From the IMG/VR virus record IMGVR_UViG_3300025065_000002: a stretch of DNA of 60,000 nt. One strand, given 5' to 3'. Numbering within the stretch: the first letter of the stretch is position 1; every line of letters begins with the position of its first letter. The position numbers were made by a program, and so were the translations under genes. The stretch comes from a virus. The notes below the pieces were generated by a model. It was not told where the DNA came from and did not search any database. It was given only the letters and a program-made list of their open reading frames with translations. Below are positions 1 to 24,096 of this stretch, piece after piece.

Positions 1-127
1 CGTTTGCAGGCACGTATTGATGCAACCAATCGCGTTAATGCACCCGACTTACTTGCTGACTTTGAAGCCGACGCGCCTAATGTTCTGAGTAATGATCCAG
101 CGCCTACTAATGCTCAAACAGCCACGC
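1..127. repeat. Window-wrap duplicate of 59874..60000 (circular junction of a 59,873-bp genome)
   Basis: First 127 nt (cgtttgcaggcacgtattga...caaacagccacgc) compared base by base with the last 127 nt: identical. Confidence 0.97.
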
Positions 128-3100
128 AGCTAACCGATGAAAACCCTACGGTTAATATTCCAGCGCCTAAGAAAGCACCAAGAGAGCTGTCAGATAAAGC
201 GATGGTTCGTGAAATACAGAAGCCTACCACCAAAAATACTGAGACGGACTACAGGGCAGCGTTAAACTTATCAGAAGGTCAAAACCTTGGTCGCTTAATT
301 ATGTCTAGCGGCAGAGTTTTTGATGATGCCGTAGTAAAAAGCATGGACGATAAAGGCGTCACAGTAGAAGCAACGGTCAACGGTAAACGTGGATTGCATA
401 AGGGTTTGCAATACCAAACCGTGGATGCAGGTATTAACAACACAAAGAGTTATGCTGAGCAACAAGCAGCGCAGGAAAGCCAAGCAACCCATGAATCTAA
501 GCTTGCAGAGAAGTACGGCTTTAACGATAGTAATAAACTTGATCATGGCGAGCTATCTATCCCTAATCGCACAAAGAACATTGATAGTGAGCTTGATAGG
601 TATAAAGCAGATAAAGCAAAAATTGACGCTAAAAAACTTGATGAAGTTAAAACCAAGAACACTGAAAAGGCAGAAGCAGAGACAGAGCGCTTGTTGCCAA
701 TCAAAGAGCAGGCGCAAGCAGAATACAAGCAGTACGGCACAGCAATGGTCAACGCTTATAAAGATAAGCTTGAGGCGCAAGGGGTGAATGCGCGTGACTT
801 TATACGTGATGAAGCGAAATACAACCCCGAGTCATTCTTGAAGTTATCTAAAAAATTCCAAGAAGAGCAGCAAGCTGAACCTCAGTCTCAAGCGGAAAAA
901 TCGGAAGCGAAAGCCATTAAGCCGCAGTTGAATTGGACTAAAGATGCCAACGGCAGGAAGATATGGCGTGCTGATAACGGTATGATTATAACCGATGAAA
1001 GCATGGTTGTAGGCGGCGTCAGAAACAAATTTTTCTTTCTTTATGAAAACCAAACAGAGCGATATGCTGGCAACAATGTAGAGCGCGGTGAGTCTTTGTC
1101 TGAGGCAAAAGATAAGGCTGAAAGCCTGGTTAAATCAAAACCAGAAGCCGCGCCGGAAACCAAAAAACCGACTGCTAAAACTGAACCATCCGATAATCCT
1201 AGCGCCACTGGTGACTGGCAAACGCAAGTGAATGGCAATGAGTTCCGCATTAACGAAGACGGGATTACTGTACGCAAGCATGACCGAGTTGTTCATATTC
1301 GCGGTGCAAACTCTATAACCGCCAGCAAAAAAGCGAAAGAGCTTGCCAACCAAGATATTCGCGAGCTTCATTATATCGCTGCAAAAGAAGATGCTAGCGA
1401 CCCGTTTAGCGAGGGTTCTATCTGGCTTGATGGCAATGGGGATATGGTGCGCAAAAAAGGAACCAAGAAACCTACTGGCTCCTTACTGCCAATCCTAAAG
1501 CAAGCTGAAACTAAAACAGCACCTAAAAAAGCAGACAAGCCAGCCACGCCTACCGCACCAGTCGCAGAGATTGAGGATTTTGGAGAGAAGATAACTGGTG
1601 CGCGTAAAGACATGCAATCGTTCTATCAAAAAGAAATGACAGACGACGATATTATTAACCAGCCACTCAGCAAGATATGGCCCAAGAAAGACGTTGATGC
1701 CATCGAAGATACGCAGATGGCAGCACTTGCTACCGTTTTTCGTAGCGCCATACCAAGTAAACCAAGAAAAGGTTATAAGCTTGACAGATGGGTAGCGACT
1801 GTAAAAACTTTTCGTGGTGTTATGCAGAGTATGGTTAGCGACACTATTCCATTTGATAAAATTATGGATGGACTGATAGCAAGCGAGAGAATGAGTGAGT
1901 ATGCTTATCATGCAAAACTACTGGCGAAACTAGACAGGGAACAGTGGTCGCGCATTGATAAAGTTGATCCGCAGATAGGCTATCAAAAAAGAAACGAGGC
2001 TGGCGATTACATTCCCTTCGTTGGCTTTGCTGTGACCATCGACAAGAGAACGCATACTTTTAACACTGAGCAAAGAGATATATCAGAGATTATCGACAAG
2101 GTTAATAATCTACTGGGTGGCGAGGTCAAGACGCAAGCATTGAAATTTGACTTGTATAGTCGCGGTCGCGGCGATGCTAAGTCGTGGTTTATCACCCAAG
2201 CCAGCGACAAAGATAAGACGCCGCTTATTGAATTTAACGACAGGGATGCTGCTAGAGCGTTTCTAAAAGAAAACAACAGCGAGCTATCTGAGCTGTGGGA
2301 TCAACACAAAGAGCGCGTAAACGTCAAAAAATCTGACATGCGCTCGAATGTCAACCGTGAGCGCATCGGCCCCGACCATCGCGGCGGTCAAGACGTAACG
2401 ACCGAACAGTTTATGAACACGTTTGGCTTACGTGGCGGTCAGTTTGGTAACTGGGTAAAGCAAGGCGCCAACAGCAAAGACCGTCAGAATATTCTGAACG
2501 ATGCTTATGATGCCTTTATGGACTTGGCAGGCGTGCTTAATATTCCACCTGAAGCGATTGGCTTAGGCGGCAAACTTGCTATGTCGTTTGGTGCTCGCGG
2601 TAAAGGCCGCGCCATGGCGCACTATGAGCCGTCGCAAGTCATCATCAACCTAACCAAAACGCAAGGCGCAGGCTCGCTTGCTCATGAATGGTTCCATGCG
2701 TTAGACAATCACTTCACCTCGTTCCGTGATGATCCTAATCGCTTGACCAGTAAAGAGAATGCTTATATCACCTATAAGCCCGAGCCAATGCTGATTATGA
2801 AAGATCAGAACGGCAATCCTAGTCGTATGCGCCCAATAACAGAGATGCGGCGCAAGCAGTTGTACGAGATGAATAAGAACCGCGCCTACTTACCCGAAAA
2901 CTTTATGCCCGACCCTAATCATAAAGAAGGTGTGCGCCCACAAGTTGAAGTGGCTTTTGCAAACCTGGTAGAGACGCTAGACGAATCACCAATGAAAGCT
3001 CGAGCTGTCACCATTGATAAAGGTGCGCCTGATGGTTATTGGTCACGCATTATCGAGCGTGCAGCGCGAGCGTTTGAAAGCTATGTGATTAACAAGTTAG

Positions 3101-6100
3101 AGAAGCAGGGCGCGCGCAGCGACTTCTTAGCCAACATCACACCTGAAGATGCCTTCCCTCGTAATATGGACAGATACCCATACTTACTACAGAGTGAGAT
3201 GGCGCCAGTGGCAGAAGCGTTTGATAACTTATTTGCCACTCTTGACAGTAAAGCTTCGGAAGACGGTAACGGCAAAACACTTTTTAGTCGTGCCGGACAG
3301 TTAAATGAAGCGATAGATAAAGTGAAGGCTGGCGCGATTGGCAGTACGCAGACCACCCGCCAGCAAGTCATTGGCAAACTAAACGATAAGTTTGGTAAAG
3401 AAACCATTACTAAGCTCATGAGCGACGGCAAACTTGATATCAAAGTGCTGTCCGACTTTATGCAAGACGGCAAGCTGACTATCCCTAGTGATGTCGATGG
3501 TCTATACCACAACGGCAAGGCCACCTTGATTGCAGACAACCTATCTGACGATATGATTATCCCGACCTTCTTACATGAGCTTGGTGGTCATGGTGGGATG
3601 CAAGGCTTGATGGACAAGAAAGCCTACGACGCGCTGATGAGAGATTTTGACAGCCTGGTTAAAGCAGGCGACCCATTAGCCATGCAAGCAAAAGCGATGG
3701 CGGATAAAGTCGCACGTAATGAGCAAGACGCACTCGATGAGTATCTGCCGTACCTAATCACACTTACCTCACGCCAGCAAGCCAAGCAAGGCAAGGTGGC
3801 TGGCATGATCAATCGTATGGTCATGGCGATACGCTCATGGCTTAAAAATACTTTAGGCGTACCGATTACCATTAACTCGCAAGATATCTTGTCACTGGCT
3901 GAACGCATGGTAAACGAGATTGAAAAGCAAGGCTCGCTAGATAACATGGCTAATGCAGCGCCACAATTTAGCGACCCGAATATTCCTGATAAGCAGATGC
4001 AGGACGTGCGCGACCAGTATGAAAATACCGATCAGTGGATGACTGCGCCTAATGGCAAGCCGACCAATTTGACTGAAAACCAGTGGGTGCAAACAAGAAC
4101 ACCAGCCTTTAAAGAATGGTTTGGTGACTGGCAGAACGACCCGAAAAATGCGTCTAAGATAGTCGACGATAATGGTGAGCCAAGAATAACCTATCATCAA
4201 ACAGATGATACGTGGAATACTTTTGACAAGTCGAAAGCCAAGGCTGGCAAGCATGACAATGAAACGCCAACAGGTATATTCGTAAAGGGTAGCGATAGAG
4301 ATATAGGTATTGGTGAGAACTTAAACCAAATGCCTTTATTTACCAATATAAAAAATCCGCTTGAACTAAAAGATAGGCAGGCAGCAAAAAAGTATTATGA
4401 AAGTAATATTGATGGCTATGCTGATATTGTCGCAAGCATGAAAAAGGATGATGACACCTATAGTAAGGCACTCGATGAAGCTGAGAGCAGTATTCAGGCT
4501 GAGTTGAAAAGAAGGTATGAGACTGGCGACCGTTCGCAAAGCTCGAAAGAGTTGTTTAAAAAATCTAGGGATATCCTGAACGAGTGGACAGCCAGTCAAC
4601 AAGCCAACTCGCTCGCTGCTAAAAAACTAATCGATGACCATTTAGCTGAAAACGATATTGACGGTGTGGTTCTTGAAGCAGATGAAGGCTCTTTTGGTCG
4701 AGAAACCGATGCGATTATTGCCATCAATAACAACCAAATCAAGTCTGCCACAGACAATATAGGCACCTTCGATAACACTAACCCTGACATCCGCTTCAGC
4801 GACCCGAACGTGCCAGCCAAACAGCTTGATGATGTTCGTACTAAACACGAAGGCACAGATGAATGGATGAAGGCGCCTAACGGTAGCGATACCAATCTAA
4901 CCGAACAACAATGGTTACAAGTTCGCACGCCAGCGTTCAAGAAATGGTTTGGGGATTGGGAGGATGACGCAGAGAATGCAAGCAAAGTCGTAGATGAAAA
5001 TGGCGAGCCGATGGTGGTTTATCATGGCAGCCCAAAAAGATTCTATAACTTTGACATAGATAACCTTGGTAAGCGCACTAATAACTTGGGGCATTTCGGT
5101 AAGGGTTTCTATTTCACACCAGATATAGATACCGCGAATAGATATGCTGGATATCGTGACTCACAAGGAGATACAGCCTATAACGATTCATCAACCACTT
5201 ATCGCGGTTACTTAAACATTAAGAAACCATTTTACGATACTTACGAAAATCTAAAGCCATACCTCGATGGTGTTGGCGTGCAAAAAATAAAAGATGGTAT
5301 AGATAGGGATTATTTAGAACAGCATATTCTTAATTACGACCCAGCTTTACAGATATTAATTGACGATGTAAACAAATCTAAAAGATATCCTGATGGAGAT
5401 AACACTTACGAGCAATATAAGAAAAACGGTGGCAAGCTTTCGGATGAATATCAGTCAGGCGTGCCTTTAGATTATGATGGGCTAGCTGGGATTCTGTTTG
5501 GAAACATATACCTAACTATGAGTGAGCGTGAGATTGACAGCATTCAAAAAATGATGGGCGCGATACCAGATAAGTATATTAGCGTGGGTTTCTCAGGGCA
5601 ACCGACTTTAGCGGAAGCAACTAGCTATGGTCAGAAGGATAATGGCATTACTGAAAACATAATGTCAGATGGGTTTGATGGGGTGATACACGCACCTGAC
5701 GGTGTGAGCAAGAAGTATATTGAGTACGTCGCCTTTAACCCCAACCAAATCAAATCCGCCACCGACAACGCTGGCACGTTTGACAGCAATAACAACGACA
5801 TCCGTTACAGCCGCGCCGCTGGTATGAATGATCAGTTCGACCCACGCAATATCGCTAAAGAAACAGCGACAAGACTTTACGACTGGGCGAGCTCCGCACC
5901 TCCTGGCAAACTATCGTGGTGGCACAAGACTATTGGCACCATGTATAACCTAGCTCAGCGCAACCCATACTTTAAACCTGTCTTCGAGAACACTGAGAAG
6001 TTTATCAACGATGTGTCGTTCTACGCAGCCAAAGCCTCAGAGCTTGCGCCAAGACTATTGCCGCAGCTTGACTCACTGCGCGATATCACCAAGTCTGCTA

Positions 6101-8775
6101 TCGGTGCCAAGGATAATGAAGCGCTAAGTAAGCCCATTTTTGAAGGTACGTTATTGTGGGGCCGCGACCTTGATGGCAAAGCAGTGCTCATCAAGGACTG
6201 GCGTAAAAAGGTAATGGCAACCTCAAAGCAAGACCGCTTGCAGATGCTAAAAGACGCCAACCGTATCACGCCAGCACAGCTGCAACAGCTTGCCACGCTA
6301 AACAACATCCAAGCCAACCGCTTTATCAATGGCATTATCGATGAAGAAGTGAACGCTGGTCTTGTCTGGACTGACAACGAGCTACGGTCTAAGTTCAATC
6401 TTGACGATAAGCAGATTGAATTATACCGAGAGTTCCGCGCTACCACAGACAATAGCCTTGATAGCATGACGCGCTCAGACATGCTCAGACGTTTGGGTAA
6501 AGATGCGACCGCTATTGAAACGGCAGTCATGGAAGCTGGCACGTTACGCGAAGCGGTCTTTACTATCGAGCAGCATATTAATGGCTTGATACAAGCCAGC
6601 CCGAAAAAAGAGAAGTCGCTAAAGAATACGTTGAAAGATATCAAGGAATCACAATTCCGCACCAATAAGCTAATCGATGATGGTTATGCGCCATTATCAC
6701 GCTTCGGTCAATACACGGTCGATGTCGTCGATAAAGACGGCAACCGTGAATACTTTGGTATGTTTGAATCTGCTTATGAAGCGCGCAAGATGAAGGGCGA
6801 GATGGATGCGCTGTATGGCGATGATCAAGACTTCACTGTTACCCAAGGCGCACTATCGAAAGAAGAGTTTAAATTGTTCGCTGGCGTGACACCTGAAACC
6901 GCTGAATTGTTTGGTGAGATGATGGGGCTTGATGCCACTGGTGACAAAGCGGCTGACGATGCGTTCCAAGAGTACCTACGCCGCACCAAAAACAACCGTA
7001 GCACCATGAAGCGCTTGATGCACCGTAAAGGTATCAAAGGTTATTCTGAAGACGTTGGCCGTGTGCTGGCGAGTTTTGTGTACTCAAATGCGCGTCATAC
7101 CTCAGCTGCTTTAAACATGGGCAACCTTGACCGTAGTATTCAAGACATACCAAAAGGCGAGGGCCAGTTAAAAGATGCTGCAGTCAAACTGGCGGAGTAC
7201 ATTAAAAACCCACAAGAAGAAGGCAACGTCATTCGTGGCTGGATGTTCGCGCAATACTTGGGTGGCTCGATTGCTTCTGCTGCAGTCAACATTACCCAAC
7301 CTATTGCCGTGTCATTCCCTTATCTGTCACAGTTCGGCGGCGCGGTCAAAGCAGCAAGCCAGCTCAAACGCTCAAGCAGTGATTGGGCCAAGTCACTGAA
7401 GAACAAGAACAATGATCACTTTGAGGCAGGCTTACGCGACGCAATCGCACGCGCTGAAGCAGATGGCACACTGTCACCACAAGAGGTTCACAACCTACTC
7501 AAGCAAGCCAGCGGTAAAAACCCACTGAGCGCCGGTGATGGTACAAAAATTGGTAACGCCAAAGCGCTGGCAGGTAACACACTGTCTCGCGTCAGTCTGG
7601 CATGGGGTTCGTTATTTAGTTTGGCAGAACAGGTCAACCGCCGCGTAACTTTTGTGGCAGCGTATCGCATGGCAGTCGAGCAAGGCATGGATAATCCGGC
7701 AGAGTTTGCTACCAAGTCGATTAAAGAAACGCAGTTTGTTTATAACAAAGCGTCACGTATGAATTGGGGGCGGGGTGCTGTCGGTGGCACGCTCATGACG
7801 TTTAAGACTTATACCGTATCTTACATTGAGCTGATGCACAGACTATGGAATCAGGGCGAGAAGGGGTCTGTTGAACGTGCCCAAGGTCGCAAAGCAACCA
7901 TGATTATGCTTGGCGTCATGTTCCTACTATCAGGTTCAGGCGGTTTACCATTTATGGAAGATGCGGAAGACTTGATTGATGGTATTGGTCAAATTATGGG
8001 CTACAACTTATCATCGAAGAAAGCACGACAAGACTTTTTGGATGCGTGGTTTGGTGAGATGATAGGGGACTTTATGGAGTCAGGCGCATCGAGTTTACCG
8101 GGTTCACCGACCGATGTATCAGGTCGATTAGGTCTTGGTAACTTAATACCAGGTACCGGTATTTTTAGAGAGCGCACCAATAATACCCGTGACGTGCTTG
8201 AGGTTGTCGGTCCGGCTGGTGATTTTGTTGGACGTGTCGCAACTGGCACCAGAGATATTGCCAAAGGCGTGGCAAACTTAGACGCCACAAGTATCAAGAA
8301 AGGTACATTAGAGCTCGCACCTACCGCCGTTCGCAACGCGGTCAAAGGTATAAGTATGGGCACATCGGGTATTTATAAAGATACCAAAGGCTATAAAGTC
8401 ACTGACGTGTCACCCGTTGATGCGGCTTTTAAATTTGCAGGATTCCAGCCGCTAAAAGTATCTAAGATTCAAGAGGCTAACTATCTTGGTCAAACGAATA
8501 CTTCTTACTACAGTTTGCGCGCCTCAAATATCCGCGCACTGTGGGCGGCTGGCGTGGTCGAAGGCAATAGCAGTAAAGTTGCTGATGCACGCGCTGCAGT
8601 TGCAGACTGGAATAACAAAAATCCTGATCAAAAAATCATCATCAAGCCCACTGATATCGCTCGCCGTGTCCGTGAGATGAAGATGGATAAGTCAGAGCGC
8701 GTCACCAAGCTGGCACCAAAGTCAATGCGCGCACAAATGGCGTCAGACTTTGCACAAGTACGTGACGGTTTTTAA
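1..8775 (+). CDS. Giant polyvalent virion protein, C-terminal part (codons 959-3882)
   Basis: ORF track 4..8775 (its TTG start is an artefact of the window edge). TAA stop at 8773-8775 is followed by an intrinsic terminator. Recognisable motifs: DFGEKITGARKD, GGQFGNWV...SLAHEWFHALDNHF, FLHELGGHGG, two YH..(G)FYFT-type modules each ending NQIKSATDN.GTFD...DIR(F/Y)S, and GYAPLSRFGQYTV. Confidence 0.9.
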   Translation, partial: RLQARIDATNRVNAPDLLADFEADAPNVLSNDPAPTNAQTATQLTDENPTVNIPAPKKAPRELSDKAMVREIQKPTTKNTETDYRAALNLSEGQNLGRLIMSSGRVFDDAVVKSMDDKGVTVEATVNGKRGLHKGLQYQTVDAGINNTKSYAEQQAAQESQATHESKLAEKYGFNDSNKLDHGELSIPNRTKNIDSELDRYKADKAKIDAKKLDEVKTKNTEKAEAETERLLPIKEQAQAEYKQYGTAMVNAYKDKLEAQGVNARDFIRDEAKYNPESFLKLSKKFQEEQQAEPQSQAEKSEAKAIKPQLNWTKDANGRKIWRADNGMIITDESMVVGGVRNKFFFLYENQTERYAGNNVERGESLSEAKDKAESLVKSKPEAAPETKKPTAKTEPSDNPSATGDWQTQVNGNEFRINEDGITVRKHDRVVHIRGANSITASKKAKELANQDIRELHYIAAKEDASDPFSEGSIWLDGNGDMVRKKGTKKPTGSLLPILKQAETKTAPKKADKPATPTAPVAEIEDFGEKITGARKDMQSFYQKEMTDDDIINQPLSKIWPKKDVDAIEDTQMAALATVFRSAIPSKPRKGYKLDRWVATVKTFRGVMQSMVSDTIPFDKIMDGLIASERMSEYAYHAKLLAKLDREQWSRIDKVDPQIGYQKRNEAGDYIPFVGFAVTIDKRTHTFNTEQRDISEIIDKVNNLLGGEVKTQALKFDLYSRGRGDAKSWFITQASDKDKTPLIEFNDRDAARAFLKENNSELSELWDQHKERVNVKKSDMRSNVNRERIGPDHRGGQDVTTEQFMNTFGLRGGQFGNWVKQGANSKDRQNILNDAYDAFMDLAGVLNIPPEAIGLGGKLAMSFGARGKGRAMAHYEPSQVIINLTKTQGAGSLAHEWFHALDNHFTSFRDDPNRLTSKENAYITYKPEPMLIMKDQNGNPSRMRPITEMRRKQLYEMNKNRAYLPENFMPDPNHKEGVRPQVEVAFANLVETLDESPMKARAVTIDKGAPDGYWSRIIERAARAFESYVINKLEKQGARSDFLANITPEDAFPRNMDRYPYLLQSEMAPVAEAFDNLFATLDSKASEDGNGKTLFSRAGQLNEAIDKVKAGAIGSTQTTRQQVIGKLNDKFGKETITKLMSDGKLDIKVLSDFMQDGKLTIPSDVDGLYHNGKATLIADNLSDDMIIPTFLHELGGHGGMQGLMDKKAYDALMRDFDSLVKAGDPLAMQAKAMADKVARNEQDALDEYLPYLITLTSRQQAKQGKVAGMINRMVMAIRSWLKNTLGVPITINSQDILSLAERMVNEIEKQGSLDNMANAAPQFSDPNIPDKQMQDVRDQYENTDQWMTAPNGKPTNLTENQWVQTRTPAFKEWFGDWQNDPKNASKIVDDNGEPRITYHQTDDTWNTFDKSKAKAGKHDNETPTGIFVKGSDRDIGIGENLNQMPLFTNIKNPLELKDRQAAKKYYESNIDGYADIVASMKKDDDTYSKALDEAESSIQAELKRRYETGDRSQSSKELFKKSRDILNEWTASQQANSLAAKKLIDDHLAENDIDGVVLEADEGSFGRETDAIIAINNNQIKSATDNIGTFDNTNPDIRFSDPNVPAKQLDDVRTKHEGTDEWMKAPNGSDTNLTEQQWLQVRTPAFKKWFGDWEDDAENASKVVDENGEPMVVYHGSPKRFYNFDIDNLGKRTNNLGHFGKGFYFTPDIDTANRYAGYRDSQGDTAYNDSSTTYRGYLNIKKPFYDTYENLKPYLDGVGVQKIKDGIDRDYLEQHILNYDPALQILIDDVNKSKRYPDGDNTYEQYKKNGGKLSDEYQSGVPLDYDGLAGILFGNIYLTMSEREIDSIQKMMGAIPDKYISVGFSGQPTLAEATSYGQKDNGITENIMSDGFDGVIHAPDGVSKKYIEYVAFNPNQIKSATDNAGTFDSNNNDIRYSRAAGMNDQFDPRNIAKETATRLYDWASSAPPGKLSWWHKTIGTMYNLAQRNPYFKPVFENTEKFINDVSFYAAKASELAPRLLPQLDSLRDITKSAIGAKDNEALSKPIFEGTLLWGRDLDGKAVLIKDWRKKVMATSKQDRLQMLKDANRITPAQLQQLATLNNIQANRFINGIIDEEVNAGLVWTDNELRSKFNLDDKQIELYREFRATTDNSLDSMTRSDMLRRLGKDATAIETAVMEAGTLREAVFTIEQHINGLIQASPKKEKSLKNTLKDIKESQFRTNKLIDDGYAPLSRFGQYTVDVVDKDGNREYFGMFESAYEARKMKGEMDALYGDDQDFTVTQGALSKEEFKLFAGVTPETAELFGEMMGLDATGDKAADDAFQEYLRRTKNNRSTMKRLMHRKGIKGYSEDVGRVLASFVYSNARHTSAALNMGNLDRSIQDIPKGEGQLKDAAVKLAEYIKNPQEEGNVIRGWMFAQYLGGSIASAAVNITQPIAVSFPYLSQFGGAVKAASQLKRSSSDWAKSLKNKNNDHFEAGLRDAIARAEADGTLSPQEVHNLLKQASGKNPLSAGDGTKIGNAKALAGNTLSRVSLAWGSLFSLAEQVNRRVTFVAAYRMAVEQGMDNPAEFATKSIKETQFVYNKASRMNWGRGAVGGTLMTFKTYTVSYIELMHRLWNQGEKGSVERAQGRKATMIMLGVMFLLSGSGGLPFMEDAEDLIDGIGQIMGYNLSSKKARQDFLDAWFGEMIGDFMESGASSLPGSPTDVSGRLGLGNLIPGTGIFRERTNNTRDVLEVVGPAGDFVGRVATGTRDIAKGVANLDATSIKKGTLELAPTAVRNAVKGISMGTSGIYKDTKGYKVTDVSPVDAAFKFAGFQPLKVSKIQEANYLGQTNTSYYSLRASNIRALWAAGVVEGNSSKVADARAAVADWNNKNPDQKIIIKPTDIARRVREMKMDKSERVTKLAPKSMRAQMASDFAQVRDGF
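2359..3135 (+). other. LPD1-type HExxH (metallopeptidase-like) module of the giant protein
   Basis: FGLRGGQFGNWVKQGANSKDRQNILNDAYDAFMDLAGVLNIP...AMSFGARGKGRAMAHYEP..INLTKTQGAGSLAHEWFHALDNHF. The HEWFH codons are at 2683-2697, followed by ERAARAFESYV. Confidence 0.65.
3967..4800 (+). other. ART-like module 1 (apparently degenerate)
   Basis: FSDPNIPDKQMQDVR...TPAFKEWFGDWQNDPKNASKIVDDNGEPRITYHQT...GIFVKG...DAIIAINNNQIKSATDNIGTFDNTNPDIRFS. It is collinear with module 2, but the Tyr (GFYFT) and Glu (IEYVAF) positions are replaced. Confidence 0.55.
4801..5811 (+). other. ART-like module 2 (H-Y-E-type signature intact)
   Basis: DPNVPAKQLDDVR...TPAFKKWFGDWEDDAENASKVVDENGEPMVVYHGS (5020-5031)...GKGFYFT (5101-5118)...YIEYVAFNPNQIKSATDNAGTFDSNNNDIRYS (Glu codon at 5722-5724). 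Confidence 0.6.
6691..6708 (+). other. PLxRFG motif of the giant protein
   Basis: Codons cca tta tca cgc ttc ggt encode PLSRFG within IDDGYAPLSRFGQYTVDVVD. Downstream are hydrophobic segments and AEQVNRRVTFVAAYRMA. Confidence 0.6.
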
Positions 8776-8810
8776 GTAGTCCAACTACCGAGGATTCCTC
8801 GAAACATCAA

Positions 8811-8838
8811 AGCTCACCCTAAGCGGTGGGCTTTTTTG
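8811..8838 (+). terminator. Intrinsic terminator after the giant gene
   Basis: Stem agctcacc / ggtgggct (8 bp including one G-U), loop ctaagc, then a T6 run. Confidence 0.8.
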
Positions 8839-8855
8839 TGTCTGATTTTTGGCAC

Positions 8856-8872
8856 ACCCCTATAAGGTTCGC
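8856..8872 (+). promoter_or_regulatory. Late-block motif copy 1 (ACCCCTATAAGGTTCGC)
   Basis: Exact 17-mer shared with 28561 and 35887; a 14-mer is shared with 55737. It lies 18 nt after the terminator T-run and 92 nt before ATG 8948. Confidence 0.6.
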
Positions 8873-8998
8873 TACTCACAACCTATCTTGATTAAATGAT
8901 GATTATTGAAACGATATATAAATCTATTAATCAGAAAAGGATTAACCATGGCGGATATGAAGTAGTACACAGGAACAAAAGTTGTTAATGCCACACCA

Positions 8999-9382
8999 AT
9001 GACTCGCCAAACATATAACGATTTGCGTGGTTGGGACTTGCCAGCAGACGAAGATGGTAGCGATGAAGGTTACTTGGTCGAATACACTGATGGTGGGCAA
9101 GCAAACACTGATGGTTACGATGGCTATGTTTCTTGGTCACCAAAAGGCGTGTTTGAGAAATCATATTTACCGTCAAGCCATCCATTAGATCGTATGGCTA
9201 TTGAAAACATGCAACTGATTGAGCGATTAAAACCGCTTGATGAATTATTAGCAAAACCACAGCCTAAGTTTATTAGTGATAAGCAATGGGCTTTACTCCA
9301 CGAACAGCAAAAACACATGACCGCCTATTTCAATACATTAGATGAGCGTATTGAAGACTTAGCTGCCGAATTGGGATTATGA
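8999..9382 (+). CDS. Hypothetical acidic protein (DEGYLVEYTDGG...YVSWSPKGVFEKSY), N-terminus apparently cut by an in-frame TAG
   Basis: ORF in the track. Its stop overlaps the next start (ATGA). The same frame extends upstream to an SD-preceded ATG at 8948 but is interrupted by TAG at 8963-8965. Confidence 0.6.
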   Translation: MTRQTYNDLRGWDLPADEDGSDEGYLVEYTDGGQANTDGYDGYVSWSPKGVFEKSYLPSSHPLDRMAIENMQLIERLKPLDELLAKPQPKFISDKQWALLHEQQKHMTAYFNTLDERIEDLAAELGL

Positions 9383-10026
9383 AAATGCCAGAATCAAACC
9401 AAGAAGTAACAAATACAGAAGGTAAAATCACTGGCGAAACCTCCGATGGTTATCATACTTTTAATGAGTTATACCATCATCGGATGGTTTTGTTCTCGAT
9501 TATCTGCAATAGCAATAAAGACAAGGCTTTTAAGTCGAAGCTACACGCTGACGGTACAATGTTCGATGACTACTTTATTGTTGGAGTCAATACGCCTGAA
9601 GGTCACTACACCTATCATTACCACATAAATAATTGGGATCGCTTCCAAGTCAAAGAGCTTGAACATGCGCCTGAATGGGATGGCCACCAGCCTTGCGATA
9701 TTGACAGACTTTTAACGCTAGAAAGTAGTGGCGACTGTCCTATTGAAGAAGGTGATGAGTTTGATTTTGGCTCAGCTATTTACTTGATGCAAAAGGGCGA
9801 GCGTGTCATGCGTGCTGGCTGGAATGGCAAAGGCATGTTTATTTACATCGTGCCAGCAGCAAGTTATCCAGCACAGCGCAATGCCAAGGGCGTATTAGTA
9901 GGTGACTATCCCAATGACATGGTTCCGTACAGCTCTTATATCGCTTTGAAGTCTGCTAGTGGCGAAGTGGTGCCATGGACTATTAGCCAGTCAGACGCAC
10001 TCGCAACCGACTGGTGCCTCGCCTAA
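9379..10026 (+). CDS. Fusion protein: WDGH-like N-terminal domain plus DUF2829 (Tad2-like) C-terminal domain
   Basis: N-terminal part: SDGYHTFNELYHHRMVLF...HADGTMFDDYFIVGV.TPEGHYTYHYH...PEWDGH. C-terminal part (about 9757-10023): FDFGSAIYLMQKGERVMRAGWNGKGMFIYIVP...PYSSYIALKSASGEVVPWTISQSDALATDW, which matches the DUF2829 consensus (GWNGKGM...PW..SQ.D.LA.DW). Confidence 0.78.
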   Translation: MKMPESNQEVTNTEGKITGETSDGYHTFNELYHHRMVLFSIICNSNKDKAFKSKLHADGTMFDDYFIVGVNTPEGHYTYHYHINNWDRFQVKELEHAPEWDGHQPCDIDRLLTLESSGDCPIEEGDEFDFGSAIYLMQKGERVMRAGWNGKGMFIYIVPAASYPAQRNAKGVLVGDYPNDMVPYSSYIALKSASGEVVPWTISQSDALATDWCLA

Positions 10027-10051
10027 ATAACACGCAGCAAAGGACAAATCA

Positions 10052-10618
10052 ATGACCATTAGATCAGCCTTCGGCAATGGCATTATCGCAATGGGCGGTT
10101 ATGTTGCCACCAAAGCCGCCGCATTATCTGCCTCAGATATCACCACGCCGTCGGTTGTTGAGGTGGTGCCAAAGAATAACGTGTACCTATTTCAAATGGC
10201 TGACCCATACCTATTGGTCGGCTTCACGGTTCCCAACTGGCTTGGCGTAGTGTTCTTTGTGATAGCGCTTATCTTTGGCACTATCGCTGGCATGAACCAA
10301 GAAACACCGATTGACGGTAAGTTTAAACGCGCTTATCTCAAGCCGTTTTATAGCTTGTCGTTTGGCATATTAGTGACCTTGTTTATCGTGCCAGCTTTTT
10401 ACCCTGACATTACTATCTGGAGCCTCATTGTTCCGGCTGGGTTTTTTGCCGCCATTGGTTCAGTGGTTATTTATTACGTGATTGCCTTCTTTACTGGCGA
10501 AAAATTATGGGCGCTTATCAATACAGAGGCCCACAGCTCTGCGCCTGACATGATAAAAGCTGTCTTTGGTTACTTCAAAGGTATCTTGATGGCGTTTATC
10601 GGGAGGAATGATAAATGA
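10052..10618 (+). CDS. Multi-pass membrane protein of the lysis cassette (holin/antiholin candidate)
   Basis: AAAGGA RBS before ATG 10052. There are 4-5 hydrophobic helices (e.g. WLGVVFFVIALIFGTIAG, FGILVTLFIVPAF, LIVPAGFFAAIGSVVIYYVIAFF). The stop overlaps the next start. Confidence 0.65.
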   Translation: MTIRSAFGNGIIAMGGYVATKAAALSASDITTPSVVEVVPKNNVYLFQMADPYLLVGFTVPNWLGVVFFVIALIFGTIAGMNQETPIDGKFKRAYLKPFYSLSFGILVTLFIVPAFYPDITIWSLIVPAGFFAAIGSVVIYYVIAFFTGEKLWALINTEAHSSAPDMIKAVFGYFKGILMAFIGRNDK

Positions 10619-10950
10619 TCATCTTTAACTTAGCGTTTTTTAATACCTTGCTTGCTCTCATTGGCATCATCGGCTGGAGCTGGGTATGGTGGTTTGGCAA
10701 GTACAAGACTGGCTGCAATGCTCGCATTCAGATGGGCGTCATCTTACTTGGCGTCGTGTGGGTGATGTTGTTTTTGGCTGATACTGTTCAGGACTTGGTG
10801 CCAACCAGTTTAACCGTGGTCAGTCGAGCGCTGGTATTAATTGGCTTATGGTGCTGTATGCCACTGCTTAAAAAGCAAGTGGAAACGCTAGAGCCCAGTG
10901 CGCCAGAAGTCAAGATTAAAAAAATTCGTATTAGAGGTAAATCATTATGA
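10615..10950 (+). CDS. Holin candidate (three TM helices, charged C-terminus)
   Basis: Hydrophobic segments are FNLAFFNTLLALIGIIGWSWVWWF, MGVILLGVVWVMLFL and ALVLIGLWCCMPLL, with the tail KIKKIRIRGKSL. It sits immediately upstream of the endolysin with an ATGA overlap. Confidence 0.6.
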   Translation: MIIFNLAFFNTLLALIGIIGWSWVWWFGKYKTGCNARIQMGVILLGVVWVMLFLADTVQDLVPTSLTVVSRALVLIGLWCCMPLLKKQVETLEPSAPEVKIKKIRIRGKSL

Positions 10951-11819
10951 CAAGCCAAGCCGTTACCGATACTGCTATTTTTGCAAAACTGCGTGAGCAT
11001 CTAGCGCCAACCAAGTTGTCGCAACTGATTGTCGATATCACCAACCAGGCCATGACTGATAATACGTTTCGTGGTGAACTCATTGAGCGCTTAGAGCTGT
11101 CAGTTAAAGAGGTTGAGATTGATGCTGGCAAGCGGCCTTATAATTTGACGATTGAAACACTTAAAAAAGTTGATCCAAACGTCAATCCAGCGGCGGTCGA
11201 AATACTTTTAAGACTGGGGCCACAGTACGGCATTATTACCAAGAAGCAAATGTGCTCATTTATCGCTAACTGTATTCATGAGTCAAGCGCATTCAATGCT
11301 AAACGCGAGAGTTTTAATTATCGCCCTGAGCGCTTGCGAGCTGTATTCCCTAGCAGGATTAAGTCTATTGCAGACGCCAAGGCGCTACTGGCAAAAGGGC
11401 AGGTCGCTGTTGCCAACTATTTGTATGGTGGTCGCTATGGCAATCGCCCTAACACCAATGACGGCTGGCATTATCGCGGTGGCGGCTGGACTGGGAACAC
11501 TTTCCGCGATAATTATTTTATTTTGCAAAATATGACCGGCATTAAGTTTGGGGACAATCCTAAACTGATTGAAGACATGGAAAACGCGGCCATCGCTGCA
11601 ATGGAATTTTGGCGTATCAATGGCTGCAATGAAAAGGCTGAAAAGATTAATACTTACTCGAACGGCTATACGCTTAATACACTAAACAGTAAAGGCATTG
11701 AAACCAAAGACTATAAGATGAATTATGGCGCTCGTATTATCCGTCAAACGGTCAATGGTGGCTTGAATGGTTATACCGAGTTTTGCCAAGCGCTTGAGAA
11801 GTGTTTGCGGTATTTATAG
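10947..11819 (+). CDS. Endolysin, glycoside hydrolase family 19 (chitinase-like) with about 90-aa N-terminal extension
   Basis: CIHESSAFNAKRESFNY (two Glu with GH19 spacing), ANYLYGGRYGN and GWHYRGGGWTGNTFRDNY. It follows the holin candidates. Confidence 0.8.
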   Translation: MTSQAVTDTAIFAKLREHLAPTKLSQLIVDITNQAMTDNTFRGELIERLELSVKEVEIDAGKRPYNLTIETLKKVDPNVNPAAVEILLRLGPQYGIITKKQMCSFIANCIHESSAFNAKRESFNYRPERLRAVFPSRIKSIADAKALLAKGQVAVANYLYGGRYGNRPNTNDGWHYRGGGWTGNTFRDNYFILQNMTGIKFGDNPKLIEDMENAAIAAMEFWRINGCNEKAEKINTYSNGYTLNTLNSKGIETKDYKMNYGARIIRQTVNGGLNGYTEFCQALEKCLRYL

Positions 11820-11901: not shown

Positions 11902-11931
11902 GCCCATCTATTAATTTAGATGGGCTTTTTT
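11902..11931 (+). terminator. Intrinsic terminator ending the late transcript
   Basis: Stem gcccatcta / tagatgggc (9 bp), loop ttaatt, then a T6 run. Confidence 0.85.
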
Positions 11932-12470: not shown

Positions 12471-12622
12471 ATAGTTAGACAATGTAAAACATAGTTAAAC
12501 AAAGCAAGACGTAAAAACCTACTAAACCCCTTAAAACACTACGTTTCAAGGGGTTTTTAGTGCCTAAGCCCATGTTAATAAAGCATAGTTGAGCATTGAC
12601 AAACATAGTTAAGCATAGTATT
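12471..12622. repeat. ATAGTTA arm-type repeat family
   Basis: atagtta(g/a)a at 12471, 12491 and 12605; atagttga at 12585; atagtatt at 12615. All lie between the core and int. Confidence 0.7.
12527..12558 (+). terminator. Intrinsic terminator-like hairpin downstream of the tmRNA-like core
   Basis: Stem cccctt (12527-12532) / aagggg (12548-12553), then a T5 run. The loop is long (15 nt). Confidence 0.5.
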
Positions 12623-12624: not shown

Positions 12625-12667
12625 TGCACACAACACACACACGTATTGACACACGGAATTGGCAACC

Positions 12668-13813
12668 ATGATAACCAAAGACGCACAAGTAAAAGCCCTA
12701 AAACCAGAGGATAAGCGCTACTCAAAATCGTTAGGCGATGGTTTATCTATCGATGTTATGCCGTCTGGAAAAAAGTCATGGGTGCTGGCTTATGTTAAGG
12801 CTGGCAAGCGCACACGAACTAAGCTTGGCACATATCCAGTGTTATCACTTAAAGATGCTCGCACGCTCGCGCAAGAAATGCAGCGCCAAGCCATCATGGG
12901 TTATAACGACATACTGGTTGAGGGTTTAGTGCAAGAATGGCTATCTGTGTACTCGCCAGCATGGACAAGCCAAAAGTATCACGATACGGTCGTGTATCGA
13001 CTAGAATTAGTGACACACCGCATTGCAAAGGTAAAAGCGAACGATGTTAATCGCGCCATGATATCGAACGAGATCAGCTTACTTATCGCCAACGGCACCA
13101 TAGAGACAGCAAACCGATGTTTGCGTCTGCTTAACTCATTGTTTGACTATGCGCTGGCCAAAGACTATGTTCAGAATAATCCTTGCTCATTGGTTAGTAA
13201 GATGATACCGTCGCGCAAAGTGATTAACATGCCTTGTCTGCCTATTACTGAAATGCCAAAATTTTGGACCAAGCTTAATTATATGGATATGCAGTTTGAG
13301 ACAAAACAGGCAATCGCTTTATATAACTACCTTGCCTGCCGCCCAAGTGAGCTTGCAAAGGCAAGATGGGATACGGGAGAGTTTGATTTAGATAATGGTG
13401 TGTGGTTGATACCAGCACACAGAATGAAGATGCGCCAAGAGCACATGATACCGCTGACTGAAAAACCATTAGAGATATTGCGCGAGATTTACGCTAATCG
13501 TACCAATGATGAGTATGTGTTTAAGAAAAAGAACAAGCCATGGGAACACATGCCAACCGAAACGCCACTGGCAGCAATCAAGCGTGCGGCTGGGGCTGGC
13601 AAGATGACCACACACGGCTTTAGGTCATTATTATCGACGCACGCCAACGCCTCAAAAGAGTTCGATAAGGATGTTATCGAGCGTCACCTGGCACACGTAC
13701 CGGAGAATAAAGGCCGCTTTGCCTACAATCGCGCTGACTACTGGGACGAGCGCGTTCGTCTTATGGAATGGTGGTCAGATATTGTTACACCTTGGATTTA
13801 TGGACAGGCATAA
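12668..13813 (+). CDS. int: Tyrosine integrase, P4-like (DUF4102-type N-terminal arm-binding domain)
   Basis: The N-terminus KDAQVKALKPEDKRYSKSLGDGLSIDVMPSGKKSWVLAY...LGTYPVLSLKDAR is typical of P4-type integrases. The C-terminus has HGFRSLLSTHA, ERHLAH and Y in FAYNRADYW. The track starts at TTG 12659; I prefer ATG 12668. Confidence 0.9.
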   Translation: MITKDAQVKALKPEDKRYSKSLGDGLSIDVMPSGKKSWVLAYVKAGKRTRTKLGTYPVLSLKDARTLAQEMQRQAIMGYNDILVEGLVQEWLSVYSPAWTSQKYHDTVVYRLELVTHRIAKVKANDVNRAMISNEISLLIANGTIETANRCLRLLNSLFDYALAKDYVQNNPCSLVSKMIPSRKVINMPCLPITEMPKFWTKLNYMDMQFETKQAIALYNYLACRPSELAKARWDTGEFDLDNGVWLIPAHRMKMRQEHMIPLTEKPLEILREIYANRTNDEYVFKKKNKPWEHMPTETPLAAIKRAAGAGKMTTHGFRSLLSTHANASKEFDKDVIERHLAHVPENKGRFAYNRADYWDERVRLMEWWSDIVTPWIYGQA

Positions 13814-19559: not shown

Positions 19560-20258
19560 CTACCAGCGCTCCATGTTTGACCATTCCCAGACCCAACCAA
19601 GCACCTCAACATCACTCATATCTTCCGGCAGAACAATCTCGTCAGGGTATGCTGGATTATGGCTGCGAATTAACAGACCTCCATCTGGTCGCATGTATAG
19701 ATACTTAGTGCGCCTCATCACACCATGCCTTATACAATAAATCTTACCATCTTTAATCTCTTTTTTACTGGCGTCAGCAGTACACCTTGCGCCATCTGAT
19801 ATACGCTCGGCCATACTGTCACCATCATTCATATAACTAAAAGACTGCGTGATGCTAGCACCTGCCTTGCGAGCTGATCGCTTGCTCATTCTTATTTTTT
19901 TATCCGTCACTTCTTGTACCTCGCCCTCTTGGTTCCCTGCCGTTACAACTACCTTGTCGTAATAAGGTATCTCAAACTCATCATCATCAAGTTCGGTATC
20001 TTCATCCCAACCAACTACAGCAGAATAGCCTCGATAAGCCTCATCCCTGCCTGTGATTAAAAACTCCGCGCTGACGCCCAGCACCTCCGCCAACCCATTC
20101 ATATTACTGCCCGTTGGTTCAGACTGACCATTACGCCATTTACCTACAGCTACCTTAGATACGTTTAGCTTTTCGGCAATCTTGACGTTATTAAGACCTG
20201 ATTCGATTATCAAGTCGTTAATCCTATGCCCCATCTGCTCTAACTCAATATTGGTCAT
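19560..20258 (-). CDS. CI-like repressor (XRE HTH plus S24 LexA-type autopeptidase)
   Basis: The N-terminus LNNVKIAEKLNVSKVAVGKWRNGQSEP is an HTH. The C-terminus has GDSMAERI (Ser nucleophile) and KYLYMRPDGGLLIRSHNP (Lys region). Confidence 0.9.
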   Translation of the reverse strand: MTNIELEQMGHRINDLIIESGLNNVKIAEKLNVSKVAVGKWRNGQSEPTGSNMNGLAEVLGVSAEFLITGRDEAYRGYSAVVGWDEDTELDDDEFEIPYYDKVVVTAGNQEGEVQEVTDKKIRMSKRSARKAGASITQSFSYMNDGDSMAERISDGARCTADASKKEIKDGKIYCIRHGVMRRTKYLYMRPDGGLLIRSHNPAYPDEIVLPEDMSDVEVLGWVWEWSNMERW

Positions 20259-22315: not shown

Positions 22316-23080
22316 ATGAACGACATTATGCAAGTAAACGAAGTAAGCAAGACCATGAGCAGTCGCGAAATTGCCGAACTATGCGAAAAACGCCATGACC
22401 ATGTTTGTCGTGATATCGACAATCTTAATCAGAGCTATGAACAAATGGGCCTCCCCAAAGCTGGGGAGGGGCACTACACCCATCCAAACACGGGCAATCA
22501 GCAGCATCGCCAATTTTTACTAAGTAAAGAACAGACGATTGATTTAATAACTGGTTATCGCGCTGATATCCGTATTCGTATTAATCGTCGCTGGCAAGAA
22601 TTAGAACAGCAAGCGCAAGCAAGTAGTCCGGTCATGCCAGCACTACCTAACTTTACTAATCCAGCAGATGCAGCGATTGCATGGGCAGAAGAATATAAAG
22701 CTAAAGAAGCGGCGCAAGCTGAGGTTATCGAGTTAAAACCAAAGGCCGAAGCGCTGGCACGTATCAGCAGCGCAAAAGGCGCTACTGGTATTCGTGATAC
22801 CGCTAAAGCTGTTGGTATGCGTCAGAACGACTTTGTAGCGTGGTGTATTGATGATACCAAGCCTATGAGCCGTCGCTTCATGTATCGCGATGATAGAGGC
22901 GTGCTTAATGCGTACTCACATCGCACCAGTGCAGGACTCATGACGCAGAAGCTACAGTCGTTCGTTGGTCATGATGGGCGTGATAGAGCAGAGCCTAGAG
23001 TTAAATTTACCCCGGCTGGCGTGGCTAAGATTGCAGAGATGCTTGAGAAAGAGCGCAATAAAGAATTGGAGCCAATGTAA
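22316..23080 (+). CDS. Rha-family N-terminal domain plus KilAC-type antirepressor C-terminal domain
   Basis: TMSSREIAELCEKRHDHVCRDIDNL...NQQHRQFLLSKEQTIDLITGYRADIRIRINRRWQELE is Rha-like. The C-terminus has AKAVGMRQNDFVAWC...YRDDRG. Confidence 0.8.
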   Translation: MNDIMQVNEVSKTMSSREIAELCEKRHDHVCRDIDNLNQSYEQMGLPKAGEGHYTHPNTGNQQHRQFLLSKEQTIDLITGYRADIRIRINRRWQELEQQAQASSPVMPALPNFTNPADAAIAWAEEYKAKEAAQAEVIELKPKAEALARISSAKGATGIRDTAKAVGMRQNDFVAWCIDDTKPMSRRFMYRDDRGVLNAYSHRTSAGLMTQKLQSFVGHDGRDRAEPRVKFTPAGVAKIAEMLEKERNKELEPM

Positions 23081-24096
23081 TGACGGTACACGTTTTTAAC
23101 GTAGACGATGCAGTGAAGTACGGCATAGAAAAGGCTGTGATATTGCAGAATATGCGCTTTTGGCTGGATAAAAACAAAGCTAATGGCACTAACTTGCATG
23201 ATGGCTATTACTGGACGTACAACAGCGCAGAGGCGTTTTTCAAGATATTCCCTTACTTTAAGTCAGCTAAAGTCATCCAACGCCTACTAAAAAGCATGGT
23301 AGTAGACGGCTTATTGCTGGCTGGCAATTACAACAATAAGGGTTATGACCGCACAAAATGGTACTCAATGCCTGAATATTGCGCTGAAAGCCTTGATACA
23401 AGCCATTGTTCAAAAATGACCAATGGATTGGACAAAAATGACCAATGCAATGGTCAAGAATGTCCAATGGATTGTTCAAAAATGACCAATGCAATGGTCA
23501 AAAATGACCAACCTATACCAGATATAAACACAGATAGTAAACCAGATATAAACACAGATATTGGTACTAAAAAGAAATCATCAAAAAAACCCATTAAAAA
23601 GCTCACTGATTATCCTGATGATTTTAAACCTACTGAAAAGCAAGTAGCCAAGATGAATGAGTATGGAATCAACATACCTTTATTTTTAGAAACATTTGAA
23701 AATGGAACAAAAGCGAAGGGTATTCAATACAAGTGCTGGACTAGTGCATTTACCACTTGGATAAACAACGAGATTAAATTTCGCAAGCTTGCACCGGTAC
23801 CAGCACAAGAGAAATACGAGCCAGCATTTAACGGCTGGAACGACAGAAACCCTGATTACAAGCCACCTAGCCAGCAACCTGACGTTTACCACCCTAGTCA
23901 AGCAGAGTTCCAACCATCAGAGCCAGTCACCTACGTGCCAGCTATTGGAGACCCTAACTGGCGCTGGACAGAACCGCTACCGGGAATGAGCATTATTGAG
24001 ACTGATCGATACATCAAAGATCATAAGCGCAAAGGCGAGAACCCGAACAAGGCTTATCAGAGACTGCTTGTTGAGATGCAGGGAGAGACGGTATGA
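23080..24096 (+). CDS. Replication initiator (lambda O-like role) with embedded origin
   Basis: The N-terminal winged-helix-like region is AVILQNMRFWLDKNKANGTNLHDGYYWTYNSAEAFFKIFPYFKSAKVIQRLLKSMVVDGLL..YNNKGYDRTKWY. An iteron array sits inside the gene. Confidence 0.68.
   Translation: MTVHVFNVDDAVKYGIEKAVILQNMRFWLDKNKANGTNLHDGYYWTYNSAEAFFKIFPYFKSAKVIQRLLKSMVVDGLLLAGNYNNKGYDRTKWYSMPEYCAESLDTSHCSKMTNGLDKNDQCNGQECPMDCSKMTNAMVKNDQPIPDINTDSKPDINTDIGTKKKSSKKPIKKLTDYPDDFKPTEKQVAKMNEYGINIPLFLETFENGTKAKGIQYKCWTSAFTTWINNEIKFRKLAPVPAQEKYEPAFNGWNDRNPDYKPPSQQPDVYHPSQAEFQPSEPVTYVPAIGDPNWRWTEPLPGMSIIETDRYIKDHKRKGENPNKAYQRLLVEMQGETV
23411..23513 (+). repeat. Origin iterons: five copies of CAAAAATGACCAATG(G/C) at exact 22-bp spacing
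   Basis: Copies start at 23411, 23433, 23455 (degenerate: caagaatgtccaatgg), 23477 and 23499. Confidence 0.85.
23518..23595 (+). repeat. Direct repeat ccagatataaacacagata x2 (24-bp period) followed by an A-rich tract
   Basis: Copies at 23518-23536 and 23542-23560, followed by ttggtactaaaaagaaatcatcaaaaaaa. Confidence 0.8.

Follow-up and report, generated by a model that had tools for sequence, protein, structure and literature searches.

The locus described here raises the question of whether a phage protein that combines a recognizable sponge for immune signals with an uncharacterized partner domain performs one counter-defense activity or two. It lies in a 60,000-nucleotide (nt) stretch of virus DNA (IMG/VR record IMGVR_UViG_3300025065_000002, hereafter the window), where a gene at 9379..10026 (+ strand) encodes a 215 amino acid (aa) protein with an N-terminal WDGH domain and a C-terminal Tad2-like domain. 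The best explanation of the whole, in our view, is a two-module counter-defense protein, in which a Tad2 sponge is joined to a second activity supplied by WDGH, within a late, lysis-linked hotspot; we hold this with moderate confidence.

Both domains were assigned by Pfam profiles. The WDGH domain (9433..9717, + strand; aa 19-113) matches PF25311 over positions 1-96 of the 97 in the profile (E=2.3e-43; 146.9 bits against a cutoff of 27), and the Tad2-like domain (9763..10020, + strand; aa 129-214) matches PF11195, or DUF2829, which Pfam describes as 'Thoeris anti-defense 2-like domain' (E=5.6e-21; 75.3 bits against a cutoff of 25). Both scores are far above chance. The first-pass annotation, made from the sequence alone, had placed the C-terminal ~90 residues in the DUF2829/Tad2 family behind a fused N-terminal domain of about 125 aa; the former is borne out, and the latter now has a family. 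In PHROGs, both halves match solely families without an assigned function, and searches of the protein in NCBIfam and PADLOC gave zero matches.

It is scarcely credible that the fusion is an artefact of assembly or gene calling, or a recent frameshift that joined two genes. The window is a metagenomic assembly, and the adjoining upstream gene has a premature stop, but the same unbroken open reading frame (ORF) is shared by four 90%-identity clusters whose contigs are independent and come from different samples (P0002-P0004 being the intact orthologs), and two more, highly divergent WDGH-Tad2 lineages exist (P0106/P0121 and P0140). Overall, the architecture was found in seven 90%-identity clusters in three lineages. 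The full-length fusion was absent among the 185,579 species-representative genomes searched, where two candidate copies (L007 and L030) were rejected because they have other architectures, and in the 50% library the only full-length match was the cluster of the query itself. The pairing of partners and the architecture are uncharacterized and rare. The stop codon of the upstream gene (8999-9382) and the ATG at 9379 share nucleotides in the sequence ATGA, while the start of the orthologs corresponds to the ATG at 9385 (M3 of the 215 aa protein); translation could begin at either.

A phmmer search of the PDB sequences with the Tad2 half returned only Tad2 proteins: ModTad2 (9EIB/8V3E; 5e-18), HgmTad2/AcrIIA7 (8KBI; 1e-14), SPO1 Tad2 (8SME; 9e-13), and SptTad2 (8WJD; 9e-13), all four of them experimentally characterized sponges. 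The six best Foldseek matches in the PDB were likewise all Tad2 (probability 0.97-1.0, E 4e-3 to 1e-2; template modeling scores normalized to the target, 0.41-0.56), with a probability of 1.0 for SPO1 Tad2. In the SPO1 protein, 1''-3' glyco-cyclic ADP-ribose (gcADPR) is contacted by W25, N26, W73, D79, T78, I63, and T65, and water is coordinated by D67, H71, and S76 (10.1101/2023.05.01.538930). Transferring these positions through a HMMER alignment, W25, N26, W73, S76, and D79 have identical counterparts in W148, N149, W200, S203, and D206; I63, T65, and T78 are conservatively replaced by L190, S192, and S205, and the water-coordinating D67 and H71 by S194 and V198. The HgmTad2 residues are W21/N22/G23 and W87/S90/T92/D93 (10.1101/2023.11.15.567273), and W21, N22, G23, W87, S90, and D93 are matched at the same positions. 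Between the profile match, the resemblance to known sponges, and the retained contacts, the Tad2 assignment of the C-terminal half is well supported.

Which ligand the Tad2 half would bind cannot be called from the sequence. The ligands of the family vary by homolog and include 3' cyclic ADP-ribose (3'cADPR), histidine-ADP-ribose (His-ADPR), N7-cADPR, cyclic dinucleotides (cGG/cGAMP), and cyclic UMP (cUMP). Overall, the closest relative is ModTad2 at 40% identity, and the pocket motif PWTISQSD resembles that of 3'cADPR binders (SQTD). An alternative Tad2 allele in two of the orthologs (P0002/P0004) reads TWAPSVSD, is 53% identical to ModTad2, and resembles that His-ADPR binder. Such functional plasticity, the lack of inhibition by some tested Tad2 homologs, and the replacement of D67 and H71 would all suit a domain that has decayed or binds some other ligand, with a role unrelated to Thoeris, CBASS, or Pycsar. 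We judge this quite improbable: five out of five core ligand contacts are identical, the domain is under clear purifying selection among the orthologs, its C-terminal motif is intact in P0003, P0008, and P0014, and it shares its genomic slot with other validated sponge families.

The WDGH half belongs to a large family. With the full-length fusion protein as the query and 1.84 billion representatives searched exhaustively, 7,747 matches were obtained at E<=1e-3, mostly WDGH proteins of 120-700 aa; the isolate phages carrying them infect Bacillus, Streptococcus, Lactococcus, and Klebsiella hosts, and the WDGH identity between the fusion protein and homologs from Bacillus, Streptococcus, and other phages is 55-75%. 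Among 46 close homologs, 31 columns are invariant, in the pattern S, D, H, T, F, E, L, Y, H, R ... D-G-H ... D ... R, and in a wider set of 144 representatives most of these residues are kept at >=90%. The fusion protein has S22, D23, G24, H26, T27, F28, E30, L31, Y32, H34, R35, K52, S53, H56, G59, M61, G75, Y79, H80, W86, W100, D101, G102, H103, and R110, all near-invariant family-wide, and deviates at a single near-invariant position, with F in place of the usual W51. An AlphaFold2 model of the WDGH domain alone was confident (predicted local distance difference test score, pLDDT, 91.1; predicted template modeling score 0.81), with elements in the order helix, strand, beta-hairpin, short helix, strand, helix. 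WDGH is a separate, autonomously folding module. Because of its invariant His, Asp, Arg, Lys, and aromatic residues, together with its unusually high conservation, we tentatively favor a function as an enzyme or as a tight binder of a conserved small molecule, for instance an immune nucleotide.

Two attempts to place WDGH among known counter-defense proteins were unsuccessful. As a validated sponge family it failed, the N-terminal half matching only PF25311; in particular, identity with Lockin or Acb5 was rejected because the LockinB and Acb5A sequences (Table S2, 10.1101/2025.07.12.664507) are unrelated to it, and neither WDGH motif strings nor the names of WDGH-carrying phages occur in any of the six supplements of that study. 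Kinship to the signal-degrading enzymes AcrIII-1, Acb1, Acb5, and Apyc1 was rejected in the same way, there being no similarity in sequence or fold (PDB profile search and Foldseek). In a literature search of open-access PMC and bioRxiv, 'WDGH' and 'PF25311' were not mentioned.

The company kept by WDGH within other proteins offers circumstantial evidence. A Pfam census of its partners covered the top 144 representatives, 140 of which contain WDGH. Tad2-like domains are fused to it in three (P0001, P0121, and P0140) and Tad3 in two (P0144 and P0207), one in each orientation; Lar is a partner in 6/140, and YodL, DUF551, Sequestin, and Acb4 were also found. One protein is Acb4+Sequestin+WDGH (P0052), and another (P0093; L079:1912-2538) joins WDGH to STIV_B116-like (DUF1874, the AcrIII-1 ring-nuclease family), with a separate Tad2-like gene one gene away. 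Tad3-Tad8 have been reported as direct binders of Toll/interleukin-1 receptor (TIR) proteins or Thoeris effectors (PMC13243611). Between the three WDGH-Tad2 lineages, the Tad2 halves are 24-35% identical, compared with 55-74% for the WDGH halves, a disparity more easily explained by independent fusions than by one ancient event. The proteins P0093, P0144, and P0207 are ready-made test cases for WDGH beyond this phage group. By the same 'fused to known sponge' logic that uncovered Sequestin, WDGH is a candidate counter-defense family; that it is a large, undescribed one with a new fold, which destroys or captures a conserved immune signal or a metabolite derived from nicotinamide adenine dinucleotide, is a tentative proposal that we would not yet call probable.

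The gene immediately upstream (8999..9382, + strand; 127 aa), overlooked in the first-pass annotation, carries a Sequestin domain, and the locus is therefore a multi-module hotspot and not a lone fusion. Its N-module (aa 1-60) corresponds to the N-terminal part of phrog_872, and the Sequestin domain (aa 63-120; nt 9185-9358) matches PF21825 at 51.6 bits against a cutoff of 24.8 (E=8.6e-14). That family, now named Sequestin, is a validated 3'cADPR sponge (10.1101/2025.07.12.664507). When the domain is aligned with SequestinA-D, R65, E69, Q103, and R117 occupy columns that do not vary and correspond to the functional residues R8, E12, Q47, and R61 of SequestinA. The ancestral start codon, ATG 8948, lies just past a 60-nt leader and is followed by an in-frame TAG at 8963-8965, where homologs (P0025 and P0014) read MSDMKRFNALKKV; the ORF consequently restarts only at ATG 8999, which has no obvious ribosome-binding site. 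The TAG could reflect an N-terminal truncation, reinitiation, or a sequencing error.

The N-module at 8999-9178 (GWDLPADEDG..GYLVE…GYVSWSPK..FE..Y) is without a Pfam family, and in different phages it is joined to Sequestin, WDGH, or Tad2 (P0025, P0192, L005:5166-5975, and L007:910-1551). A PGDYG-like module is likewise fused to varying partners (P0045, P0158, and L006). Both are candidates for further anti-signaling modules.

In related phages, the contents of the slot between the giant protein gene on the left and the holin-like gene on the right differ. Phage contig L003 has a 96 aa gene, a WDGH-Tad2 fusion, a 67 aa gene, and an Acb4-Sequestin fusion, in that order; L005 has Acb4-Sequestin followed by a Tad2 preceded by a Cys-rich N-module; L006 has a 96 aa gene, a PGDYG-like gene, and Acb4-Tad2; and L077 has a single PGDYG-like-WDGH gene. 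The same giant polyvalent protein lies upstream of the slot in L077, and the holin-like gene directly follows it in all four. By blastn, L003 and L006 each contain two copies of the 60-nt leader, every copy standing before a different cassette gene. Across the four fusion orthologs, two WDGH alleles (96-97% identity within an allele pair and 85-87% between pairs) and two Tad2 alleles (85-98% within and 61-67% between) are combined in all four ways, a 2x2 mosaic indicating that recombination also occurred at the inter-domain linker. The Tad2 alleles in circulation, as seen in these orthologs and at L003:3936-4577, are PWTISQSD (P0001/P0003) and TWAPSVSD (P0002/P0004), and they may reflect diversification of ligand specificity.

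The fusion gene is part of what appears to be a single transcription unit. An intrinsic terminator at 8809..8834 (+ strand; 10-bp stem with 5 GC pairs, and a T-run) follows the giant gene, and between it and the upstream/fusion gene pair stands the first of four window copies of a 19-nt 'late' motif, ACACCCCTATAAGGTTCGC (8854..8872, + strand). The 60-nt leader, which recurs at cassette boundaries and ends at the ancestral start codon, then occupies 8893..8950 (+ strand). Because the motif is at 8854 and the next strong terminator is at 11902..11925 (+ strand; 9-bp stem with 5 GC pairs, and a T-run), the unit extends over 8999-11819 and comprises, in addition to the 8999-9382 and 9379-10026 genes, those at 10052..10618, 10615..10950, and 10947..11819 (all + strand). 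The first of these three encodes a 188 aa membrane protein with several long hydrophobic stretches, whose holin-like function we infer from its position, and which forms the right border of the slot; the second, a small hydrophobic lysis-cassette protein of 111 aa, recognized from its translation and conserved in relatives; and the third, the endolysin (phrog_181, E=7.4e-41). The claim that the fusion gene sits behind the first motif copy, beside the holin and endolysin genes, is thereby upheld, and the placement is conserved in relatives.

Copies of the motif, which has an invariant core ACCCCTATAAGGTT, are located at 8854, 28559, 35885, and 55735; the last three stand ahead of, respectively, the TerS/TerL/portal genes, the head genes, and the operon that runs into the giant protein gene, and two of the four copies directly follow terminators. 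The motif, with an extended -10-like TATAAG and no -35 element, probably serves as a late promoter that requires an activator, and late expression is a reasonable inference from the genes it accompanies. Matches with a high word share to the sequence were found only in DNA metagenomes.

Several observations weigh against a two-module counter-defense protein. The late timing of its expression is read from the company of the motif. Within the Tad2 half, the AlphaFold2 model reached a pLDDT of just 60-75, and one of the five Tad2 homologs tested failed against type I Thoeris (10.1101/2023.05.01.538930). For the WDGH half, no relative was found among PDB sequences searched with the WDGH profile (best E=0.84); Foldseek against the PDB found no fold match for this half using the full-length model and, using the pLDDT-91 model, a best E of 0.33 at a probability of <=0.3; and a BFVD fold search returned only uncharacterized WDGH or Tad2 proteins, those matching the WDGH half being uncharacterized WDGH only. 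Conservation at 55-75% identity across phyla is, moreover, atypical for a sponge, as the known sponges evolve fast. A recognizable counter-defense partner is present in just ~9% of WDGH representatives, and the 186 WDGH extensions of >=40 aa fall into 144 clusters, mostly without an assignment.

The last of these numbers would be expected if WDGH were merely an accessory or oligomerization scaffold that aids the folding, stoichiometry, or assembly of small effector domains, so that the protein is just a Tad2 sponge. With at least 144 unrelated extension clusters joined to one terminus or the other, WDGH does behave like a general-purpose carrier, and sponges act as homo-oligomers that an oligomerizing partner could help. 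Nevertheless, we find such a scaffold unlikely: stand-alone WDGH proteins of ~120 aa are common, and a carrier without cargo makes little sense; the WDGH protein of L077 is the only gene in its slot; and the invariant positions are of a polar or catalytic type (D, H, E, H, R, K, H, H, D, H, R) and not those of a hydrophobic interface.

The genomic neighborhood of WDGH is also unhelpful to a counter-defense role. In a census of stand-alone WDGH genes at 76 IMG/VR loci, no sponge family was present among 118 de-duplicated immediate neighbors. Most of these encode scaffold, Mu-F, capsid, protease, or portal proteins or are unannotated ORFs; NADAR, found twice, was the only counter-defense-flavored one. 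In Streptococcus phage Javan199 and a Psychrobacter-type contig, WDGH lies within the head module, and in Bacillus phage Nate it belongs to a group of small genes next to NADAR. Given its adjacency to Mu-F or polyvalent virion proteins, WDGH may instead have a virion-linked role, in which it serves the virion or an ejected polyvalent protein (as an antidote or chaperone for ART-PolyVal, or as a head accessory) and its fusion to Tad2 is a by-product of recombination. Stand-alone WDGH genes mostly occur in head modules beside scaffold, Mu-F, portal, and capsid genes, the WDGH gene follows a giant ART-PolyVal protein both here and in L077, and NADAR is a family of ADP-ribose-removing enzymes. Polyvalent neighbors are, however, rare in the census (LPD39, 1/118), and repeated fusion to Tad2 (in three lineages), to Tad3, to Acb4+Sequestin, and to an AcrIII-1-like domain is unexpected for a morphogenesis factor, making the virion role improbable in our estimation.

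Since the neighborhood test gave no enrichment, the argument for a counter-defense role of WDGH comes from its fusions and from the slots it shares. The earlier proposal of a bifunctional anti-signaling protein consequently stands in part: published fusions provide a precedent and the WDGH partners circumstantial support, but WDGH is without a relative of known function, and the neighborhood census yielded no counter-defense neighbors beyond the two NADAR genes.

Returning to the two-module counter-defense protein, the following course of events is proposed. The fusion gene would be transcribed with the lysis cassette from the late-motif promoter, presumably late in infection, and is translationally linked to the upstream gene for a Sequestin-domain protein, a predicted 3'cADPR sponge. 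The Tad2 domain would most likely assemble into the usual Tad2 homotetramer, with ligand pockets formed from W148/N149 and W200/S203/S205/D206, and would sequester the TIR-derived ADP-ribose signal of Thoeris (putatively 3'cADPR or His-ADPR), preventing activation of the Thoeris effector. WDGH would supply a second, independent counter-defense activity, and the fusion and Sequestin-domain proteins together would blunt Thoeris-type signaling late, just before lysis. Recombination between related phages exchanges the Acb4, Sequestin, Tad2, and WDGH modules at the hotspot.

If WDGH does have such an activity, the fusion protein is a dual inhibitor, and the upstream Sequestin gene brings the activities of the unit to three. 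Phages are known to get past Thoeris, CBASS, Pycsar, and type III CRISPR mainly by means of sponges and signal-cleaving enzymes, and new counter-defense families have recently been found through their fusion to known sponges, a test that WDGH passes with several partners. An active WDGH would add both a new family and a new fold to phage counter-defense and would give experiments an immediate point of entry. The locus is, in addition, an example of a group of temperate phages that swap whole anti-signaling modules at one putatively late-expressed slot beside the lysis genes.

The window itself is a circular assembly in which bases 1-127 are repeated at 59874-60000, giving a genome of ~59.87 kb. 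A CI-like repressor (19560-20258, minus strand), an integrase (12659-13813), TerS/TerL/portal genes, and a major head protein are present, and the phage is temperate. Relatives of the Tad2 half that carry a name come from Psychrobacter, and the phage probably infects this genus or a relative. The sequence is from marine metagenomes, and food-production metagenomes match it in part. On its left, the hotspot is bounded by the 3' part of the giant polyvalent virion-type protein gene (4..8775, + strand), with Pfam matches to ART-PolyVal (two stretches), LPD5, and LPD1; the protein spans the circular junction (~57000-60000 joined to 4-8775), exceeds 3,000 aa, and has ddrB-ParB within 57000-59999. 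The gene contains an internal repeat (4720-4800 and 5731-5811). Four or five iteron-like tandem 22-nt repeats, ATTGnnCAAAAATGACCAATG, are situated at 23405-23511 inside the ORF at 23080-24096 and may mark the replication origin of the phage. A short distance upstream of the integrase gene, a 34-nt repeat, ATAGTTAGACAATGTAAAACATAGTTAAACAAAG, is present in two copies (12471-12504 and 12585-12618), which may represent arm-type or att-related sites.

Among known systems, the Tad2 sponges (SPO1 gp34.65, 8SME/8SMF; ModTad2; and HgmTad2) belong to the same Pfam family as the C-terminal 90 aa of the fusion protein, which are 35-40% identical to them. The gcADPR-contact motifs GWNG and W-x-x-S-x-[ST]-D are common to both, as are a predicted helix and antiparallel sheet, but the sponges are stand-alone proteins of ~90-104 aa, whereas the domain here is preceded by the 125 aa WDGH domain. 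ModTad2 binds His-ADPR and cUMP and has SVSD in its pocket, where the fusion protein has SQSD and the SPO1 and Hgm proteins have SQTD. The Sequestin domain of the upstream gene shares four functional residues with the known Sequestins (PF21825; T4 Y16O and SequestinA/B), but it is encoded by a separate gene with an extra, uncharacterized N-module and an ancestral start interrupted by TAG. WDGH is small and its invariant residues include His, Arg/Lys, and aromatics, in which respect it may be compared to the AcrIII-1/DUF1874 ring nuclease, Acb1, and Acb5, although a functional analogy to signal-degrading counter-defense enzymes is a hypothesis only.

The nearest parallels are fusions between sponges. 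In a recent study, in which PF13876 is Acb4, the fusions Acb4-Tad2, Tad2-Sequestin, and Acb4-Sequestin were common and can be bifunctional, and an Acb4-Tad2 fusion blocked both Thoeris and CBASS (10.1101/2025.07.12.664507). The same stacking of anti-signaling modules as in those published fusions, including Acb4-Tad2 of Pasteurella phage Pm86, is seen here. Tad2 is C-terminal, which is also its place in the Acb4-Tad2 proteins from relatives in this phage group (P0023, P0059, and L006), and sister phages carry Acb4-Tad2 and Acb4-Sequestin at the same hotspot. The partner here is WDGH, which is none of Acb4, Sequestin, Lockin, Acb5, Tad1, and Acb2. A Tad2 sponge within a multi-module fusion is thus of an already known kind, and it is in the WDGH partner that the novelty lies.

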